This document shows, in pieces, positions 8,266 to 15,259 of a stretch of DNA of 64,000 bases; positions within the stretch are counted from its first letter, which is position 1, and each line of letters begins with the position of its first letter. The position numbers and the translations under genes are program-made. Location: the IMG/VR virus record IMGVR_UViG_2703718815_000003. The stretch is one strand, 5' to 3'. This stretch comes from a virus. Its lineage: Duplodnaviria > Heunggongvirae > Uroviricota > Caudoviricetes. Under the pieces are notes generated by a model. It ran no database searches. It was not told the origin of the DNA and worked only from the letters and a program-made list of their open reading frames with translations.

Positions 8266-11200
8266 TTAGTTACGTTGAGTGTTTGGGTTGAGTGATCCGC
8301 CAGGGCGTTTCTCTTGAGCGATAGTCTCAAGCGCGATTGCTTTCATCCGTTGAGCGGCATTGTTCCATATGCTTTCTGTATCGCCGGATTCAGTTGTGCT
8401 ACCGTCACTATGGACGTTGATCTCAATTGATACCGGAGAAAGAACATTTCCTCCTCCACTCATACCATCGGTACTGAGCGTTACAGGGATTGTTCGACCA
8501 TCAGGCAATGGAACATACGCCTCATTCATATCGCCTTCCCCAAACAACGCCAATTGAGGTGAGTTGGCGATACCGCCTTTCTGGTATGCCCGGAGCGGGA
8601 TCACGCCGTCTTTTCCGAATATGCCACCATTTGCAAAATTCGGAATTGCAGGAATACCATTCGTGCCATCGGCAGCAGAACTGGTCAGATTGTTGAACCC
8701 GGAAGTTGAGCCAGAAGAACCGGACATCAATCCATCGAATCCACCACCAGCCCATACTGAAACCAACCCAGATGCAACTGTCGCGCCGAAATTCAACCAC
8801 TTATTACCAGAGCCGGAAGCATTAGCTCCAAGCATTGCAAACGCGGCAGACAGAGCACCGGTAACAGAGCTGAGGTTCTGCATCGAGAAGATGGAATCCT
8901 TCACTGCTTTTGTCTCAGCATCTTTGGCTTCGGTGCTATCAAATAGCCCTGATACCCAGCTACCAATCGCATTTGTTGCTGTGCCAATTGCGCTGGTGGT
9001 CTGCTGTGTCGTTTGCCCCAATCCAGTTACCGAACTGGACGTCTCCTTCGTGGCTTCTCCTACCGACTTGTCGCCGTTAACAGTGTTGCCCATTCGTACC
9101 CCTTGATTGGCAACGGCGGAAGCAACCCCGGTCAGCAAATTACCACTCTGTGAACTACCAGCTGCGGTGGTTCCCATCCCCAACATGTTCATTAGAGGCA
9201 GCGTGATCTGCGACTTCACGACCATATTGGTGATATCTTTCAAAATGGACTGAGATAGGCTGGAGAAGCTCATCTTCCCGTTAATAACGAAATCAGTCAG
9301 GACATCAGTTAAGCCACTAAACAAATCAGTCCAGGTGCTTTCGATCTGCTCTGCCAGGTTTTCGTATTCCAGTGCCAACTTCTGCGTCGCAGTCCCTGTC
9401 TCTTTAATGAGCGCGGTATTGCCAGCAGCAATAAGTTGATTGATTTTCTTTGTATAAAGCGCCACGACTTTAGGATCAGACGCCTTATCACGAAGTTCTA
9501 TCAACGCTTTGAGATTGCGGTTGTAGGTGTCTTCGAAATCAGCAACTTTCTCTTCGCGAGACGGCGTATAGCCAGCACTAATAATGGAATCCGCCTCCGG
9601 TGCCCAAGTGGAGATCATCTGCTCAACATTGCGGCGATTAAACATCTCGCGATATTCAGGTGTCGCATTTTTGAGGTCTTCAAGACGTTTTTTCGCCTTG
9701 TCGATCATCTCTTGAGTGATGAACTCGTTAGGAACCGCATTAGCCAAATCTGTCAGCGATTTCGTTGTATCGCGAAGAGACTGATCAAACGATACCGTAG
9801 CCTTAGAGCTTTCACCCATTTGCCCCATAAGCTGATCGGCTTTGTCCAGAGCCTTCTGGTATCCGGCTGCCAGTTTCTGTTGCGCTGCCTGTTCCTTCTT
9901 GGCCGCACGCTGCGAGGCGTTAGCTGATCGTTGGGCTGCTTTCTCGGCTGCTGCTGCATCCTGTTCACGAGCTTTAGTCAGTGCGGCAATGGCTGCGGCA
10001 CGCTCTTCATCGCTCATTTTCTCCAGAGAGCTGGCGCTGGATGCTTTCTGCAAATTAAGCTGCGTCTTGAGTTGTTTAGGCCCAATAATCGGCTTACCTT
10101 CGAAGTCCATCATCGGAGTGCCGTCAGGCAAAGTACGTTGATAAGTCGCAGAATCCATCTGGTTTCGCATATATTGCGCCAGCGCCTTCTGAGCTGCTTT
10201 ATCAGTTGTACCTAACCCAAGAACAGTCCCCTGGTTTGACATTACGCCCTTACCAGTTTTGGCCGCGTTATCTCTCTCGAACTCTGCCTGAGTCAGTTCC
10301 TGAGCAACGGTTTCCAAATGCTCCTGATAACCACGAATACTGCCTTGAAGTTTCTGGATCTGCTCGGTATTTCCATCTTTTTTGGCTTTTTCAAGCTGAT
10401 CATTAAGAGTCGCTATTTGCTTCTCGGTCGCATTCTTACGAGAAGAAAGTGAATCAACCAGTTTTTGCGCAGGCTCCAGATAGCTTTTGTTTACCGTTTC
10501 ACGTAACGGTGCCAATAGTTTGTTCTTTTCGTCATCAGAAAGTGAATCGTCATCATTGATTTTTTGGATCTTCTCCAGAGCCTCTTGACGAGCTTTAGCG
10601 AATGTTGCCGCAAAGTCTCTATTCTCTTCCCGTATTTTCTCTATCTGTGATTCTGCCGCATCTTTTGCAAGACGTTTGGCTACAGCAATGTCTCCGCGTT
10701 CAATTGCCCCAGTAGTTTTATCGCGTTTCTTACGAAGGTCATTTAGCTCATTTTCTATACGCTTACGTTCATCCTGATTAATCTTTACTGTAGTTCCGGC
10801 CATACCCGGCCCATAAACCACCTTTTCGCCAGATTTTAACTCTTGTTCCTTTTGCGTGATTTGTTGCTCAAGACGCGCTTTATACTCCGCCATCTGTGCA
10901 CGTTTGGCCGCTGTCATCGCTTCTGGTATTTTCCTAATCTCGTCAACGACCTTTGAAGTTTCGCTGCGGAGCATGGTCATGTACGTGATTAGGCCAGCAA
11001 CAGCTACAGTGGCAACTGTAAATGCTGCCCCTATAGGGTTTGCTGCAATGAACGCCGTTAATCCAGCAAAAGCGCCTTTAAGCCCCGTAATCTCCCCACG
11101 GATGGCGAAAATAAGAGAGGGGATCGGAGCCAGCCCCATACGTGCCGCACGATTGAATCGAGTTACTGCTGTAGCGCCGAGGTTAAATGGAGTCTGTATG

Positions 11201-12864
11201 GCGGTCGCCATCGTGGCAAAGGTGCTAACCATCTGGCTCCCAGCGCCAACTACCCCCATGATCCCTGCTCGCATCAGTTTGAACGCAACCATCGCGGCCA
11301 CGACCTTACCGAGATTAATTACCAGCTCTTGGTTCTTTGCTAACCATTGAGCAAGCTGACGCAACCCATCGATTGCCGTTGTTAACCCCGAACCTAAAGA
11401 ATTGGCAAACGAAATCCCTTCGGCGCTATTCATGATTGAAGCCAGTTCTTTCATCCCCTTCGATAGAGAATCCAGATATCCGGCCTGACCAACCCGATCA
11501 GCAAATAACGTGAATGACGTCTGAAGTTGCGCCAGCGCACCTGTGTAGGTTTGCATCATGTCTTTCGCTGCGTTCTCATTCTCCGCACGCAGACCAACAA
11601 ACATCAGAGACAACGCCTGTTTTGCCTCAACCGTACCGCTGGCAACGGCTTTAGTCAGTTCCCCCATAGTGATGCCTGCGGCGTCTGCCATTGCCTGCAT
11701 CGCGTTAGGAACGGCTTCACCTAATTGCTGACGTAGCTCTTCCATTGACACAACGCCCTTACCGGACATCTGCTGAACGGCCACAGCCGCACGTTTCAAC
11801 AGCTCACTATCACCACCAAAACGAGCAACGGAGTCCACCAGCGCCTTCAGAGAACCATCGGTTGGATCTAAGCCAGCAGAACGAAACTTCACGAAGGAGT
11901 CTGTTAACGCCTGCATCGCGAACGGCGCATTTTGAGCCATGTCTACGATGTACTTCATGTCATCGGCGGCAGCCTGGCCAGGGTTGGACTTCTCCTTATT
12001 CAACCCTCGAAGCATCACCCGCATACGTTCCATTTCGGCCGCAGCTTCAACAATAGGCTTCTGCCACCCAAACATGATGTCAGTAACCGTTCTGGCTGCA
12101 TCTCCGATCTCGCCAAGCAGGAAAATGTTGCCACGAAGGCCAGAGAACATACCTCCTTCGTTACTTTTACCGCTATGGCCAGAAGCGCCGCTACGCCGCC
12201 CGCTACCACCATCGCCACTTCCAGATGTACGAACGCGTACCGGCTTGCTAATCAGTTGCTGACGTCCGATAACTTCGTCCATCTGCTCACGAACCTTTTT
12301 CAGTCCCTCGGCAGCCTGACTCGTTGTGACACCCCAATTACTGAGTCGCTTCGTCGTGGTATTAAGGCGCGTATTCATGCCACTCACGGACGCAGAGGCT
12401 TCTTTGACCTCCGTACCAAAGCGGCTTGCGCTTTTGCTTGCATAGGTCGCCCAATCAGAGAAATCATTTAGCTCTGATTGCACTTTACGTAATGACGCGG
12501 TGAGTTTATCTACTGAAGAAGCTGTCGTATCGACGCGCTCAATCAGGGCTTTAAGACCAGAATTGAGGTTGGTGATGTTGCCACGCATTTTACGCGTAGC
12601 ATCTGAAGCAAGCTCAAAACCGGCAGCTACATCCTGTAGTTTATCTGCCGTAGAATCGAGCTTGCTTTCCAGAACGCCAATGATACGGGCGACCGAACCC
12701 AAAGAGCGTTCAAAGGTTTGGATTTTTTGAGCAGGCTTTGTTACCTGCTCACCAAATCGAGTAAGCAGTTTCCCCGCACGATCGATTGACGCTGTAAACT
12801 GTTTGTCTTCCAGCGACAGGATAAACTCTACGTTTTGTGACATTCCCTGGTCATCCTCTGCCAA
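8266..12864 (-). CDS. tail tape measure protein
   Basis: 1532 aa, coiled-coil rich with central hydrophobic segments and Gly-rich C-terminus; sits between G/GT chaperones and distal tail genes. Confidence 0.85.
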   Translation of the reverse strand: MAEDDQGMSQNVEFILSLEDKQFTASIDRAGKLLTRFGEQVTKPAQKIQTFERSLGSVARIIGVLESKLDSTADKLQDVAAGFELASDATRKMRGNITNLNSGLKALIERVDTTASSVDKLTASLRKVQSELNDFSDWATYASKSASRFGTEVKEASASVSGMNTRLNTTTKRLSNWGVTTSQAAEGLKKVREQMDEVIGRQQLISKPVRVRTSGSGDGGSGRRSGASGHSGKSNEGGMFSGLRGNIFLLGEIGDAARTVTDIMFGWQKPIVEAAAEMERMRVMLRGLNKEKSNPGQAAADDMKYIVDMAQNAPFAMQALTDSFVKFRSAGLDPTDGSLKALVDSVARFGGDSELLKRAAVAVQQMSGKGVVSMEELRQQLGEAVPNAMQAMADAAGITMGELTKAVASGTVEAKQALSLMFVGLRAENENAAKDMMQTYTGALAQLQTSFTLFADRVGQAGYLDSLSKGMKELASIMNSAEGISFANSLGSGLTTAIDGLRQLAQWLAKNQELVINLGKVVAAMVAFKLMRAGIMGVVGAGSQMVSTFATMATAIQTPFNLGATAVTRFNRAARMGLAPIPSLIFAIRGEITGLKGAFAGLTAFIAANPIGAAFTVATVAVAGLITYMTMLRSETSKVVDEIRKIPEAMTAAKRAQMAEYKARLEQQITQKEQELKSGEKVVYGPGMAGTTVKINQDERKRIENELNDLRKKRDKTTGAIERGDIAVAKRLAKDAAESQIEKIREENRDFAATFAKARQEALEKIQKINDDDSLSDDEKNKLLAPLRETVNKSYLEPAQKLVDSLSSRKNATEKQIATLNDQLEKAKKDGNTEQIQKLQGSIRGYQEHLETVAQELTQAEFERDNAAKTGKGVMSNQGTVLGLGTTDKAAQKALAQYMRNQMDSATYQRTLPDGTPMMDFEGKPIIGPKQLKTQLNLQKASSASSLEKMSDEERAAAIAALTKAREQDAAAAEKAAQRSANASQRAAKKEQAAQQKLAAGYQKALDKADQLMGQMGESSKATVSFDQSLRDTTKSLTDLANAVPNEFITQEMIDKAKKRLEDLKNATPEYREMFNRRNVEQMISTWAPEADSIISAGYTPSREEKVADFEDTYNRNLKALIELRDKASDPKVVALYTKKINQLIAAGNTALIKETGTATQKLALEYENLAEQIESTWTDLFSGLTDVLTDFVINGKMSFSSLSQSILKDITNMVVKSQITLPLMNMLGMGTTAAGSSQSGNLLTGVASAVANQGVRMGNTVNGDKSVGEATKETSSSVTGLGQTTQQTTSAIGTATNAIGSWVSGLFDSTEAKDAETKAVKDSIFSMQNLSSVTGALSAAFAMLGANASGSGNKWLNFGATVASGLVSVWAGGGFDGLMSGSSGSTSGFNNLTSSAADGTNGIPAIPNFANGGIFGKDGVIPLRAYQKGGIANSPQLALFGEGDMNEAYVPLPDGRTIPVTLSTDGMSGGGNVLSPVSIEINVHSDGSTTESGDTESIWNNAAQRMKAIALETIAQEKRPGGSLNPNTQRN

Positions 12865-13210
12865 ATATTTGCATCAGTTGCTCTTTGGCGTCAGGGTCTG
12901 CCTTATCCTGGCTTGGATCGTAGACTTTATCTGTTACGACAGGTCTTCCAATCCTGAGTTGCAAACCCTCCATGAACGCCTTCACAGCCTCGCCATCCGC
13001 CTGGGACGCACGAGCGACTTGTAAGTTGCGGACATCCTCTTCCGCACGCAGACGGTCTATATTGCGACTGAGCATCCAGAACATCGTGAGAGGAACGTTC
13101 AGTAGCTCTAATGGCGACACGGCGTAGTGAGCAACTACACGACTGAAATAGAATCCAAGATCTATTGAGACGGTCCTTGTCCCGGATTCATCGCGGGAAA
13201 TTACTTTGCC
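12851..13210 (-). CDS. tail assembly chaperone extension (GT-like, predicted -1 frameshift product)
   Basis: ORF 12851-13120 is in the -1 frame relative to G; I translated the -1 frame from 13237 down to 13120 by hand and found no stop. Candidate slip site GCA AAG UAA at the G stop. Confidence 0.4.
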   Translation of the reverse strand, partial: GKVISRDESGTRTVSIDLGFYFSRVVAHYAVSPLELLNVPLTMFWMLSRNIDRLRAEEDVRNLQVARASQADGEAVKAFMEGLQLRIGRPVVTDKVYDPSQDKADPDAKEQLMQIFGRG

Positions 13211-13518
13211 CCTTCGCCAGCCGCTTTTTCGTTTTCTTCATCAATCACTTCCATAGCGAAGGTGAAGATCTGCTGGAGTTGCGGAACAGTCAGTTTTTCA
13301 AGAACTTCGTCAGGTACTGAAGGGATAACCTTACGAACCAGATCTGCATAAGCTGTCACTTGCTCAACAGGAGACATGTTCATGAGATCTTTGCCTTCCA
13401 TCTGCTTGATGGAAACAAAGAGGCCGACGGTCATTTCAACGATGGGATATTCTTTGCCACCAAATTTGATGCTTTTTTTCGGCGGCAGAATGGAGTCGAG
13501 ATCGAGTAATTTGGTCAT
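13201..13518 (-). CDS. tail assembly chaperone (lambda gpG-like)
   Basis: 105 aa acidic protein directly upstream of tape measure; AAGGA upstream of ATG. Confidence 0.6.
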   Translation of the reverse strand: MTKLLDLDSILPPKKSIKFGGKEYPIVEMTVGLFVSIKQMEGKDLMNMSPVEQVTAYADLVRKVIPSVPDEVLEKLTVPQLQQIFTFAMEVIDEENEKAAGEGAK

Positions 13519-13544
13519 GGTTTAAATCCTTTTAAACTCATACA

Positions 13545-13564
13545 GAGGCCCATCCATGGGCCTC
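13545..13564 (-). terminator. hairpin downstream of major tail protein gene (partial terminator)
   Basis: 8-bp stem gaggccca/tgggcctc; weak T tract on minus strand. Confidence 0.4.
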
Positions 13565-13579
13565 TTGGGTTATCACAAT

Positions 13580-14326
13580 TTAGCTTGCGGCAGTTACAGA
13601 GACGGCTTTGGTCGCCTTCTTGGCACCGTCATTAGTTGTGAAGGTGATATTGGCTGAACCGACAGCTTTACCAGTTACCAGTCCGTTCTGATCTACGGTC
13701 GCTTTATCAGTCGCATCAGAGCTCCACACGCCAGTCTTATTGGTTGCATCGGCCGGGGTGAAGGTTGCGCTCAATTGAACTTTAGTGCCCACTTTTACGG
13801 TCGGTGAAGACGGGGTCAGCGTGACGCTCTCAACCGGCTTTGGGAGGCTCATTTTCCCCAACACGCCAGCGTCGTCCGGGTAAGCGGAAAACTCAACTGA
13901 GAACACGCGAACGTCGTCAGACTGGTAGGTCATGGTGAAGTTACCCGCGGTTGCTGCTTTAGGGATGGTCAGAACATAATCCGTCGCATCCTGCGGGGTC
14001 AGCACCAACTCTTTCGCAACGTCGATCAGGTTCACTCCCTGCGCAGACGTGATGGTTACGGTATCTTCGCCAGAACTCAGCGTGGAACCTGGCATCAGAT
14101 CGACCATGTTTTTCAACACGGATTCAGCCAGCGGCGCAGTAATGGTGATGTTGCGGCCCTGGATCAGCTCGGAGATCGTGGTCTGGCCCAGCTGGTCTAC
14201 GGTCACTTTCAGCGTTTCGGTTGCGATTTCAACCTGAACACCACCTTTGGTGTAACCCAAATCCACACCACCAAACGACACCTTACAGGCACCAAGTTTG
14301 ATGTTTTTTACATGGGTATTAGACAT
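13580..14326 (-). CDS. major tail protein with C-terminal Ig-like (Big_2-type) domain
   Basis: C-terminal segment resembles the repeats of the decoration protein (TVKVGTKVQLSATFTPADATNK...WSS....ATVDQNGLVTG); start set to ATG 14324-14326 with AAGGAG upstream. Confidence 0.7.
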   Translation of the reverse strand: MSNTHVKNIKLGACKVSFGGVDLGYTKGGVQVEIATETLKVTVDQLGQTTISELIQGRNITITAPLAESVLKNMVDLMPGSTLSSGEDTVTITSAQGVNLIDVAKELVLTPQDATDYVLTIPKAATAGNFTMTYQSDDVRVFSVEFSAYPDDAGVLGKMSLPKPVESVTLTPSSPTVKVGTKVQLSATFTPADATNKTGVWSSDATDKATVDQNGLVTGKAVGSANITFTTNDGAKKATKAVSVTAAS

Positions 14327-14400
14327 TGATGGAAAACTCCTTTTTCCGTTAATTCTACGCATTCATTGCGCTAATAGTAAGTATATACTTACCAATTGAG

Positions 14401-14784
14401 TTAATTCAATAAATAGCCAGCAAATTCAACAGGAATGCCTGCTTCTATTAATGCCCCATCATTTTTGGGATAAATGATTGGCATCGCCATCGGTCGTACC
14501 AGTCGAAAATAAACACCACCAGATTCCGTTTCCTCTACTGGAAACATCTCAATGATTTTATTGGCTTTCTCAACCGTCGTAGTAATTGACGAACCACGCA
14601 CAATTATTGTGAATGATTCGTGGTAAAAGCCCTGTAGCTCATGATCGATGCTGATACCGGTATTTGGGTTAATAAGCAGGACGCCAGATTTCACATTGGC
14701 AGGCAAGTAGTGACAGAAAATGTCAGTCCCGACCGTGCCAATCTTTGCCTTCTGCATCAAACTTGCAAACGCTTCAATAAACAC
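14401..14784 (-). CDS. tail terminator / tail completion protein (candidate)
   Basis: Position immediately upstream of major tail gene. Start uncertain: GTG at 14782-14784 with GAGGT upstream overlaps the preceding stop; alternative ATG at 14757. Confidence 0.4.
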   Translation of the reverse strand: MFIEAFASLMQKAKIGTVGTDIFCHYLPANVKSGVLLINPNTGISIDHELQGFYHESFTIIVRGSSITTTVEKANKIIEMFPVEETESGGVYFRLVRPMAMPIIYPKNDGALIEAGIPVEFAGYLLN

Positions 14785-14785
14785 A

Positions 14786-15259
14786 TTAACCTCTCGTAAA
14801 ACCGGCTTTTCTGGCAGCCTCAAGAATCGCTTCTGAGAACTGCTTCTCGCTAATTTCCACCGCTCTTTCCAGAAAGTGTGGCCCAACACGAGGTTTAACA
14901 CCGGCAATTGGTGGGTTTGTCACGTTCTTCATTCGAGAAAGATAACCGAGTCGGTATTTACCCAGCTCCATGTACTTAGCATAGTCACCGACTTCTACGC
15001 CCGGATGCCCCTGACGTGGTTTTGCTCCAGACACAGAAAGCTCAATGCGCAGCCCTGAATAACCTTCTTTAATCACCCTGGCAAAGATGGCTGTCTCCAG
15101 AGATCCGGTTTCCAGCGGGGCCATTGCACGGCTGAGACGCTCAACCAAACGCGCCAGCTTTTCCATGTCCCGAATAAGATATCGCTTAAATGCTTTCTGG
15201 CTGTTGTTGAGTCGATTCACCGCACGTTTGAACTGATGCGCATCGTATTTCAGACCCAT
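14786..15259 (-). CDS. head-tail joining / neck protein (candidate)
   Basis: 157 aa, located between head and tail modules. Confidence 0.4.
   Translation of the reverse strand: MGLKYDAHQFKRAVNRLNNSQKAFKRYLIRDMEKLARLVERLSRAMAPLETGSLETAIFARVIKEGYSGLRIELSVSGAKPRQGHPGVEVGDYAKYMELGKYRLGYLSRMKNVTNPPIAGVKPRVGPHFLERAVEISEKQFSEAILEAARKAGFTRG

Follow-up and report, generated by a model that had tools for sequence, protein, structure and literature searches.

In phage lambda the tail proteins G and GT are made at about 30:1, with GT as the minor product, and both are needed for tail assembly. The lambda G/GT system and the conserved G/T arrangement of long-tailed phages are known from Levin 1993 and Xu 2004/2013/2014 (as summarised in PMC5009743). 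The locus described here resembles lambda in having two small ORFs between the tube and tape measure genes, the second of them in the -1 frame and without a start of its own (summarised for lambda in PMC5009743). In both, the slip is placed at an AAG (Lys) codon towards the 3' end of the G gene and gives a small acidic G plus a longer GT, the fusion being predicted in our case. The two differ at the slip site itself: in lambda a complete heptamer, G_GGA_AAG, precedes the stop by several codons, whereas here only A_AAG can re-pair (GCA/GUA_AAG), and it lies at the very last sense codon. We detected no sequence similarity between our two proteins and lambda G or T.

Slippage at A_AAG has been studied in its own right. 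It is the most shift-prone -1 tetramer in E. coli, and in reporters that lack a stimulator it gives only about 0.15% frameshifting (PMC4066793). NNA_AAG hexamers are known -1 sites that work in IS1222 and Bacillus subtilis cdd, and in E. coli both AAA and AAG are decoded by a single tRNA-Lys (mnm5s2UUU) (PMC5009743). Ig-like domains are also added to structural proteins of phages through frameshifting (Fraser et al., as cited in PMC5009743).

The window (the whole 64,000-nucleotide stretch of viral DNA analysed here) is an SSU5-like E. coli phage-plasmid; such phage-plasmids are common in Enterobacterales. The G-T region is found on plasmids in 232 of 5426 complete E. coli genomes, and relatives occur in Salmonella, Klebsiella, Yersinia pestis, Kluyvera, Raoultella, and Photorhabdus. 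The tail module is encoded on the minus strand in the following order:

14401..14907, minus strand: tail terminator gene (PF12691)
13580..14362, minus strand: tail tube gene with a C-terminal Big_2 Ig-like domain, the upstream neighbour of the pair
13201..13518, minus strand: G-like tail assembly chaperone gene (105 aa, 11.7 kDa, pI 4.7)
12851..13120, minus strand: T-like ORF as called mechanically and in databases, from GTG 13120 (89 aa)
8266..12843, minus strand: tape measure protein gene (PF20155/PF09718)

The G/T pair thus lies directly between the tube and tape measure genes, as the G/GT paradigm requires. The tube protein matches Big_2 over aa 176-254 (4.9e-23), and in relatives its gene is annotated as a tail protein with an Ig-like domain. 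The tape measure protein matches TMP_3 (4.4e-27) and Tape_meas_lam_C (6.1e-13); its gene starts at ATG 12843, 7 nt past the T stop, with an AGGGA Shine-Dalgarno sequence in front.

G and T match phrog_893 and phrog_1131, respectively, both families of unknown function, and a Pfam search with the two proteins returned no match to a tail-assembly-chaperone or T family. The best BFVD match of the AlphaFold model of G (pLDDT 71) is named 'Tail assembly chaperone' (E 2.9e-4), and many more of the top 30 are named as tail assembly chaperones. The label 'G-like' is based on position and a moderate structural match rather than on a sequence family. The label 'T-like' is based on position alone; the T model (pLDDT 67) matched a single uncharacterised homologue in BFVD and gives no functional clue. 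A profile search yielded 428 remote G-family clusters. Lys is the C-terminal residue of 49 among 134 full-length representatives, and the endings ..GK, ..GKE, or ..GNA are frequent in the others. Three single-protein scans of IMG/VR for the DNA of these remote homologues returned nothing.

G begins at ATG 13518, preceded by an AAAGGA Shine-Dalgarno sequence. Its sense codons span 13518..13204, and it closes with GAA GGG GCA AAG TAA, the stop lying at 13203..13201. In the -1 frame, TGA TGA at 13243..13238 closes the reading upstream; from 13237 there is no stop until 12853..12851, so that the open frame crosses both the G stop and GTG 13120 and extends for 117 codons beyond the shift point. The elements of the proposed frameshift are:

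13204..13209, minus strand: proposed slip site GCA_AAG, with the A_AAG tetramer at 13207..13204
13201..13203, minus strand: zero-frame stop UAA, adjacent to the slip codon on its 3' side and possibly part of a 'shifty stop'
13204..13237, minus strand: overlap in which the -1 frame is open 5' of the G stop, bounded by TGA TGA
12851..13204, minus strand: T-frame extension (117 codons plus the stop TGA 12853..12851)
13121..13204, minus strand: start-less linker, the first 28 T-frame codons (VISRDESGTRTVSIDLGFYFSRVVAHYA)
join(13518..13204, 13204..12854), minus strand: predicted GT fusion (222 aa, 24.8 kDa)

An earlier note on this DNA had claimed that the -1 frame is open from the end of G into ORF 12851-13120, and that tRNA-Lys can re-pair on AAA where G ends GCA AAG UAA. 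Both statements are borne out by the coordinates above, and the junction it gave, AAGEGAK-VISRDESG, matches the predicted -1 translation exactly. Reading after the slip would continue as K-VISRDESGTRTVSIDLGFYFSRVVAHYAVSPLELL... Trypsin would cleave the predicted GT after K105, at the junction, and the Glu-C junction peptide would be GAKVISRDE.

We consider it highly probable, on sequence evidence, that G and T are joined by a programmed -1 frameshift at the last G codon and are expressed like lambda G/GT. Under this mechanism most ribosomes would stop at UAA and release G (105 aa). A minority would move back one base with the single tRNA-Lys (anticodon UUU) on AAG, in either the A site or the P site, re-pair on AAA, and read GUA AUU UCC... 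in the -1 frame to 12853..12851, yielding the 222-aa GT. Production of the fusion, and its ratio to G, are inferred. If both proteins act as chaperones in the way of their lambda counterparts, G on its own and the G part within GT may coat the tape measure protein, the T part of GT may recruit the tube protein, and both G and GT would be absent from the finished virion.

An open -1 frame is not by itself above chance. About 10% of all window positions are open for at least 117 codons, and in 21 of the 132 long ORFs of the window the -1 frame stays open for at least 100 codons past the stop, because the next gene overlaps. Given how common openness is, the case for G/T rests on comparison with relatives. 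The pair stands out in that the first T-frame start comes 28 codons downstream and has no Shine-Dalgarno sequence, and in that the intervening stretch is conserved as coding.

We compared 131 related loci (a first set of 100 and 31 metagenome loci). In 129 of them G ends in GCA or GTA followed by AAG and then TAA or TAG, and the next base is T (100/100 of the first loci, 29/31 of the metagenome loci). Among the first 100, the endings are GCA-TAA (91), GTA-TAA (5), and GCA-TAG (4); in this SSU5-type family the TAA or TAG always follows AAG immediately. The two exceptions are metagenome contigs with a broken frame. In 42 loci of the first set of 100, SSU5 itself included, a GGC to GGT change creates a -1 TGA 10 nt upstream of the G stop, shrinking the overlap to 10 nt and so confining the shift to the last few G codons. 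The linker has 12/3/23 variable sites at T-frame codon positions one to three, similar to the 39/24/74 in the rest of T, a pattern by which it evolves as coding sequence. The encoded peptide, KVIS/TR.ES/AG..VSIDLGFYFSRVVAHYA, is kept down to relatives with only 61% identical G, and also in nickie.

Nickie, found by a tblastn search of cultured phages, and Nican01 are Pseudomonas phages (Nickievirus) that share with the window a homologous G (about 35% identity), a homologous T, and the same gene order. They also share the position of the shift, at a Pro/Ala-Lys end of G, and the frameshift is unannotated there too. Their G ends GCC CCA AAG GCT TAA, so that, unlike the window, they have the canonical heptamer C_CCA_AAG and one extra codon (GCT) before the stop. 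The 111-aa -1 extension shows homology to T that begins at its second residue (BLASTP 1e-13). Overall, the two-frame arrangement is kept in 129/131 SSU5-type loci plus nickie and Nican01. The proposal that this is the conserved G-T strategy of tailed phages, also made in the earlier note, draws support from synteny, the shared G endings, the coding linker, and the nickie heptamer.

The foremost alternative, that T is an independent gene with its own start (GTG 13120 or ATG 13084) and that the open frame upstream of this start is incidental, is in our judgement very unlikely. A GTG does exist at 13120, gene callers and depositors call an ORF of 69-151 aa, and open -1 frames past stops are, as noted above, common in the window. 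We searched for a Shine-Dalgarno sequence before GTG 13120, where the preceding sequence is GCTCACTACGCC, and before ATG 13084, and neither has one; by contrast, the G and tape measure starts both have good ones. Nor is an initiation site shared among relatives: the Klebsiella clade has GTA in place of GTG 13120, and the first start in the T frame falls at codon 10, 29, 36, 39, 40, or 45, depending on the clade. No conserved start codon or Shine-Dalgarno sequence was found in the T frame among the relatives compared, a result that bears directly on the separate T initiation site that the earlier note had named as the finding to set against its reading. ATG, GTG, and TTG are all absent from the T frame of the 28-codon linker (13121..13204), which, to judge from its sequence, would be reachable by a shift from G only. 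These 28 codons are nevertheless conserved as protein, with substitutions biased to third positions, and align with the nickie extension. The ORF at 12851..13120 is thus probably no independent gene.

Still less probable is a main shift further upstream, at a second slippery sequence:

13224..13228, minus strand: A_AAA_G, within codons GAA AAA GCG

This site falls inside the open -1 frame of the present sequence, and tRNA-Lys re-pairs perfectly on it. A ribosome terminating 8 codons further downstream might promote slippage there through collision; in reporters, trailing ribosomes shift frame most often 8-10 codons 5' of a stalled stop (PMC6815119). A shift here would give the junction ...ENEK-SGWRRGKVIS... 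(ENEKSGWRRGKVIS). We rejected A_AAA_G as a conserved site: the -1 TGA of the 42 relatives, SSU5 included, lies between it and the G stop, and its Lys is replaced by Ala (GAA GCC) in relatives with 61-72% identical G. At most, it may provide a minor extra route in this clade.

Least probable of all are transcriptional slippage, for which the A run of 3 nt is far too short, reinitiation at the non-canonical AUU that lies in the T frame immediately 3' of the stop (UAAUU) and is replaced by AUA, AUC, or GUU in relatives, and a sequencing or assembly indel, an error that does occur in low-coverage contigs (L119, L130) but is opposed by identical frames in the 129 intact SSU5-type loci and the two nickie-type loci and by matches to the G-T region in the 232 complete E. 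coli genomes.

At the last G codon, where we place the frameshift, AAG is in the required zero-frame register (..A_AAG), and a tRNA-Lys could re-pair one base back, on AAA. The window encodes no tRNA genes and thus no tRNA-Lys of its own; decoding of both Lys codons by a single tRNA presumably extends to all host genera. GCA and GUA are read in E. coli by cmo5U34 tRNAs. A full X_XXY_YYZ heptamer is not present, as its first half is missing (G_GCA, A/C_GUA) and only the A_AAG half remains; a P-site tRNA on GCA or GUA would re-pair poorly in the -1 frame. Synonymous variation falls to 0.33-0.56 near the slip codon, compared with about 0.9-1.0 across most of G and T, which hints at some nucleotide-level constraint. 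The adjacent stop may play a functional part, as a pause. In E. coli, a U after UAA makes for strong termination, which argues against a long pause at the stop.

We looked at the site for a pseudoknot or stem-loop 5-9 nt downstream, or a Shine-Dalgarno-like sequence upstream, and found no convincing stimulator. The 3' region of the single sequence folds no better than shuffles (z -0.28 and +0.21), and an Rfam scan of 12700..13700 gave no match. Two candidates were discarded. A hairpin UCCCG/CGGGA 5 nt past the stop shrinks to 3 bp in diverged relatives, and its fold is no better than shuffles; an upstream Shine-Dalgarno-like AAGGGG is not conserved, the relatives having GAAGAAG, GAAGACG, or GACGACG. 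One further structure is kept as a weak candidate only:

13151..13189, minus strand: candidate helix, GAAUCCGG (13189..13182) paired with UUGGAUUC (13158..13151)

The helix begins 14 nt 3' of AAG and is paired in 13/13 diverse sequences, with one double change; 46 of 500 shuffles equal its score.

In all records examined, both ORFs are annotated as 'hypothetical protein', with arbitrary start sites for T, whose homologues are called at the inconsistent lengths given above; one record gives T a false functional name. A literature search combining SSU5 with frameshift or tail assembly chaperone found no paper describing the G/T site. The site itself has been missed in the public annotations of this widespread family. 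A corrected annotation would comprise one G gene plus a join() GT product, and two families of unknown function (phrog_893 and phrog_1131) would gain names. The locus also offers a natural test case for -1 frameshifting on a bare A_AAG beside a stop, with the canonical-heptamer homologue in nickie as a built-in comparison.

Among described frameshift sites, the NNA_AAG class (IS1222 G_CGA_AAG, B. subtilis cdd A_CGA_AAG, and synthetic A_AAG constructs) is like the window in that a single tRNA-Lys slips from AAG to AAA and in that the preceding codon, which ends in A, is decoded by a broad-wobble tRNA (PMC5009743). Those sites depend on a stimulator, either a pseudoknot or stem-loop downstream or a Shine-Dalgarno-like sequence upstream, whereas none is evident here, and only in the window is the next codon a stop. 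Sites of the dnaX type differ further: A_AAA_AAG is flanked there by a Shine-Dalgarno sequence 10 nt to its 5' side and by a stem-loop on its 3' side; the window has GGG GCA AAG UAA with neither stimulator. The prfB 'shifty stop' (CUU_UGA) shares with the window a stop directly after the slip codon, such that termination competes with frameshifting. It differs in being an autoregulatory +1 shift at a weak UGA C stop with a Shine-Dalgarno sequence 3 nt upstream, whereas the window would combine a -1 shift with UAA U or UAG U and has no conserved Shine-Dalgarno sequence.

A parallel may also exist within the family. In a Raoultella-type sister clade (L095-L098, L100-L105), a predicted -1 shift at C_CCA_AAG plus stop would join Big_2 to the tube protein. 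This junction is built like the G/T site and belongs to the same tail module, but lies in another gene; in the window, tube and Big_2 are fused in frame, and an in-frame C_CCA_AAG is present at 13844..13838. We raise, as a speculative and rather doubtful generalisation, that the SSU5-type module uses a minimal, structure-independent -1 signal (NNA_AAG plus stop), for G/GT in all clades and for tube-Ig (as C_CCA_AAG plus stop) in one. If so, release factors and tRNA-Lys slippage would compete directly, and the outcome would determine GT:G, which would be sensitive to host termination capacity and growth state rather than fixed by RNA structure; the signal would amount to a -1 version of the prfB 'shifty stop'. 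As a concept, joining G to T by frameshifting is already known; the site adds to the G/GT frameshift class typified by lambda, and confirms that strategy rather than revealing a new one.

Sequence matches place the window among the SSU5-type phage-plasmids, because Salmonella phage SSU5, Escherichia phages Cyrano, CMS-2020a, and PhiR41_1, and several Klebsiella phage-plasmids are 86-97% identical to the region, and plasmids in 232 of 5426 complete E. coli genomes match the G-T region at up to 99.7% identity, always plasmid-borne. All 12 listed records for E. coli RefSeq plasmids (e.g., NZ_CP061757.1 56392-57082) have "hypothetical protein (x2)" beside "tape measure protein". The tail module has the following order:

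Tail terminator (PF12691), minus strand, first in the module
13580..14362, minus strand, tube protein with a C-terminal Big_2 domain, after the terminator
13518..13201, minus strand, G-like 105-aa ORF (G), between tube and T
13120..12851 as called, minus strand, T-like ORF (T), in another frame than G, between G and the tape measure gene
ATG at 12843, minus strand, tape measure gene (PF20155 and PF09718)

G ends with the codons GAA GGG GCA AAG TAA, its stop lying at 13203..13201. In the -1 frame, TGA TGA occurs at 13243..13238, and the frame is open from 13237 across the G stop and the GTG at 13120 to a TGA at 12853..12851. A -1 shift on AAG is predicted to yield a 222-aa, 24.8-kDa fusion (GT) that reads ...AAGEGAK-VISRDESGTRTVSIDLGFYFSRVVAHYAVSPLELL.... 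The earlier note had proposed a programmed frameshift joining the two frames, and its description of the open frame, the G ending, and the fusion peptide is exact when compared with the window sequence and its translation. The openness by itself is not remarkable: ~10% of all window positions have an open frame of 117 codons or more, and in 21 of 132 long window ORFs the -1 frame stays open 100 codons or more beyond the stop, because the next gene overlaps. What sets the G-T case apart is that the first possible start in the T frame lies 28 codons past the G stop and lacks a Shine-Dalgarno sequence, whereas good ones precede both G and the tape measure gene.

The comparison covered 131 SSU5-type loci and two of nickie type, taken from phage records, GTDB genomes, IMG/VR, metagenomes, and assemblies; their G proteins are 35-100% identical to that of the window. 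The first 100 loci all close G with [GCA|GTA] AAG TA[A|G] T (GCA-TAA in 91, GTA-TAA in 5, and GCA-TAG in 4). The same ending occurs in 29 of the 31 metagenome loci; both exceptions are frame-broken contigs, one at 1.25x coverage. The C-terminal Lys is invariant, including in relatives with 61-72% identical G. Of the first 100 loci, 42, SSU5 itself included, have GGT in place of GGC, which creates a -1-frame TGA ending 10 nt before the G stop. This confines a productive shift to the last few G codons, where cognate re-pairing is available on AAG only. A possible upstream shift site, A_AAA_G at 13228..13224, lies before the TGA carried by those 42 loci and reads GAA GCC in the relatives with 61-72% identical G (EENEAA versus EENEKA), and could be at most a minor extra route in the window's clade.

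The T-frame peptide is conserved from its first post-shift residue (KVI[ST]R.E[SA]G..[VI]SID[LF]GFYFSRV[VI]A[HY]Y). This contradicts independent initiation of T at its own start codon, as does the position of the first ATG, GTG, or TTG, which differs between clades, falling at T-frame codon 10, 29, 36, 39, 40, or 45; the Klebsiella clade has GTA at the position of the window GTG 13120. In the start-less 28-codon linker ahead of that GTG, variable sites number 12/3/23 at T-frame codon positions 1/2/3 (chi-square ~16 with 2 degrees of freedom, by our own calculation against a uniform distribution), a pattern like that in the rest of T (39/24/74), which likewise speaks against a separate start. 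Gene callers give T lengths of 69 to 151 aa, also at odds with a single start, and label it "hypothetical" every time. Reinitiation at the AUU beside the G stop is not conserved, as relatives have AUA, AUC, or GUU there. Transcriptional slippage is implausible on general grounds for a run of only three A, and an assembly indel is excluded by an arrangement common to many independent sequences. We conclude that the finding is real and that the -1 frameshift interpretation of the earlier note is well supported by comparative genomics. No frameshift is annotated in the deposited phage and RefSeq records examined.

Across 83 unique fusion coding sequences, synonymous variation is 0.33-0.56 at codons ~95-110, centred on the slip codon, versus ~0.9-1.0 over the greater part of G and T. 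The dip spans 13190-13236 (minus), including ~10 codons upstream of the slip codon in which the -1 frame is untranslated. Dual coding cannot account for this upstream half, which means that the nucleotide sequence is itself under some constraint; neither a structure nor a Shine-Dalgarno-like element explaining it was found around the slip codon.

The predicted slip site is unusually minimal and stop-adjacent, and no convincing RNA stimulator is evident near it. When folded, the 51 and 106 nt downstream do not outperform shuffled sequences (z +0.21 and -0.28), and Rfam has no match at the G-T region. A 5-bp hairpin just past the G stop shrinks to 3 bp in diverged relatives, and an upstream AAGGGG is unconserved. 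The helix GAAUCCGG/UUGGAUUC (13189..13182 with 13158..13151) stays paired in all 13 diverse sequences and shows a single compensatory change; it begins 14 nt from the slip site, and its score is equalled by 46 of 500 shuffles. A stop directly follows AAG throughout the SSU5 family, compatible with a "shifty stop", in which the P site would slip while a release factor is awaited in the A site. Because UAA-U is a strong termination context and a sense codon intervenes in Pseudomonas phage nickie, we only infer a part for the adjacent stop. The codon before AAG is GCA or GUA only in this family, and both are decoded by cmo5U34 tRNAs in E. coli. Functional NNA_AAG hexamers occur in IS1222 and B. 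subtilis cdd, with efficiency set by the wobble capacity of the 5'-codon tRNA (PMC5009743), a rule that the GCA/GUA choice would fit. A single E. coli tRNA-Lys reads AAA and AAG and pairs weakly with AAG (PMC5009743). Among -1 tetramers, A_AAG shifts most readily in E. coli, at 5.6% with the IS3 pseudoknot versus only ~0.15% without a stimulator (PMC4066793). At the G-T site the efficiency is probably low, somewhere between less than one and a few per cent.

Neither G nor T matches a Pfam family, and their PHROG families (phrog_893 for G, phrog_1131 for T) have no assigned function. The AlphaFold model of G (pLDDT 71) has as its best BFVD match a "Tail assembly chaperone" (E 2.9e-4, TM 0.62), with similarly named proteins frequent among the top 30 matches, and 2 of 60 remote G homologues touch Phage_TAC_7 (E 0.002). 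For the T model (pLDDT 67), the BFVD search returned a single uncharacterised homologue. Position and a moderate structural signal support a putative G-like identity; position and architecture support the T-like one.

A related arrangement was identified at the tube gene. In a Raoultella-type sister clade (L095-L098 and L100-L105; e.g., L095:2672-2950), the tube gene closes with GCC CCA AAG TAA/TAG and an Ig-like Big_2 domain of 84-87 aa is start-less in the -1 frame, which predicts a second -1 frameshift on a canonical C_CCA_AAG directly before the stop, the same "AAG + stop" design as at G/T. Frameshift-added Ig-like domains are a known class (PMC5009743), to which this case belongs. In the window, tube and Big_2 are fused in frame, and C_CCA_AAG persists at the junction (13844..13838, minus) with a -1-frame TGA three codons downstream (13832..13830); slippage there would yield a tube protein lacking the Ig domain. 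The SSU5, Klebsiella, and L012/L099 clades retain this heptamer, but the Cyrano/CMS-2020a clade has CCT AAA instead. The heptamer may be a relic and no longer work as a signal. The G-T region shares 97% identity with Escherichia phages Cyrano and CMS-2020a, whereas the tube/Big_2 3' end (13565-13700, minus) has no megablast-level match to them and matches Klebsiella phage-plasmids. This difference in closest matches points to a mosaic joint close to where tube and G meet, apparently through a swap of Ig domains.

The G family extends far beyond the SSU5 group: a profile search recovered 428 cluster representatives (50% identity clusters, E <= 1e-3), nearly all of 100-130 aa, including remote homologues P0154-P0298. 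A C-terminal Lys occurs in 49 of 134 full-length remote representatives, and many others close with ..GK, ..GKE, ..GKA, or ..GNA, endings suggesting that members throughout the family have a canonical slip site, G_GGA_AAG or G_GGA_AAC, at the very C-terminus. Slip-site DNA was checked for nickie and Nican01, where G ends GAA GCC CCA AAG GCT TAA, with a canonical C_CCA_AAG one codon ahead of the stop, unannotated as a frameshift in both records. Their -1 frame continues for 111 codons, and its product aligns with window T from extension residue 2 on (27% identity, BLASTP E 1e-13), including the part upstream of annotated starts. The T-homologous ORF of Nican01 (L134:2977-3207) is annotated "apolipoprotein N-acyltransferase (lnt)", which is almost certainly a misnomer for the 3' portion of a predicted GT product. 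Given this heptamer and homologous extension, the SSU5 clade appears to use a degenerate form of the canonical slip site at the homologous position. The G-T pair can be placed in the well-known G/GT frameshift class as a new member, one that has so far gone unannotated. In lambda the G:GT ratio is ~30:1 (PMC5009743), making GT a minor species, and a low efficiency here would likewise suit a predicted minor GT.
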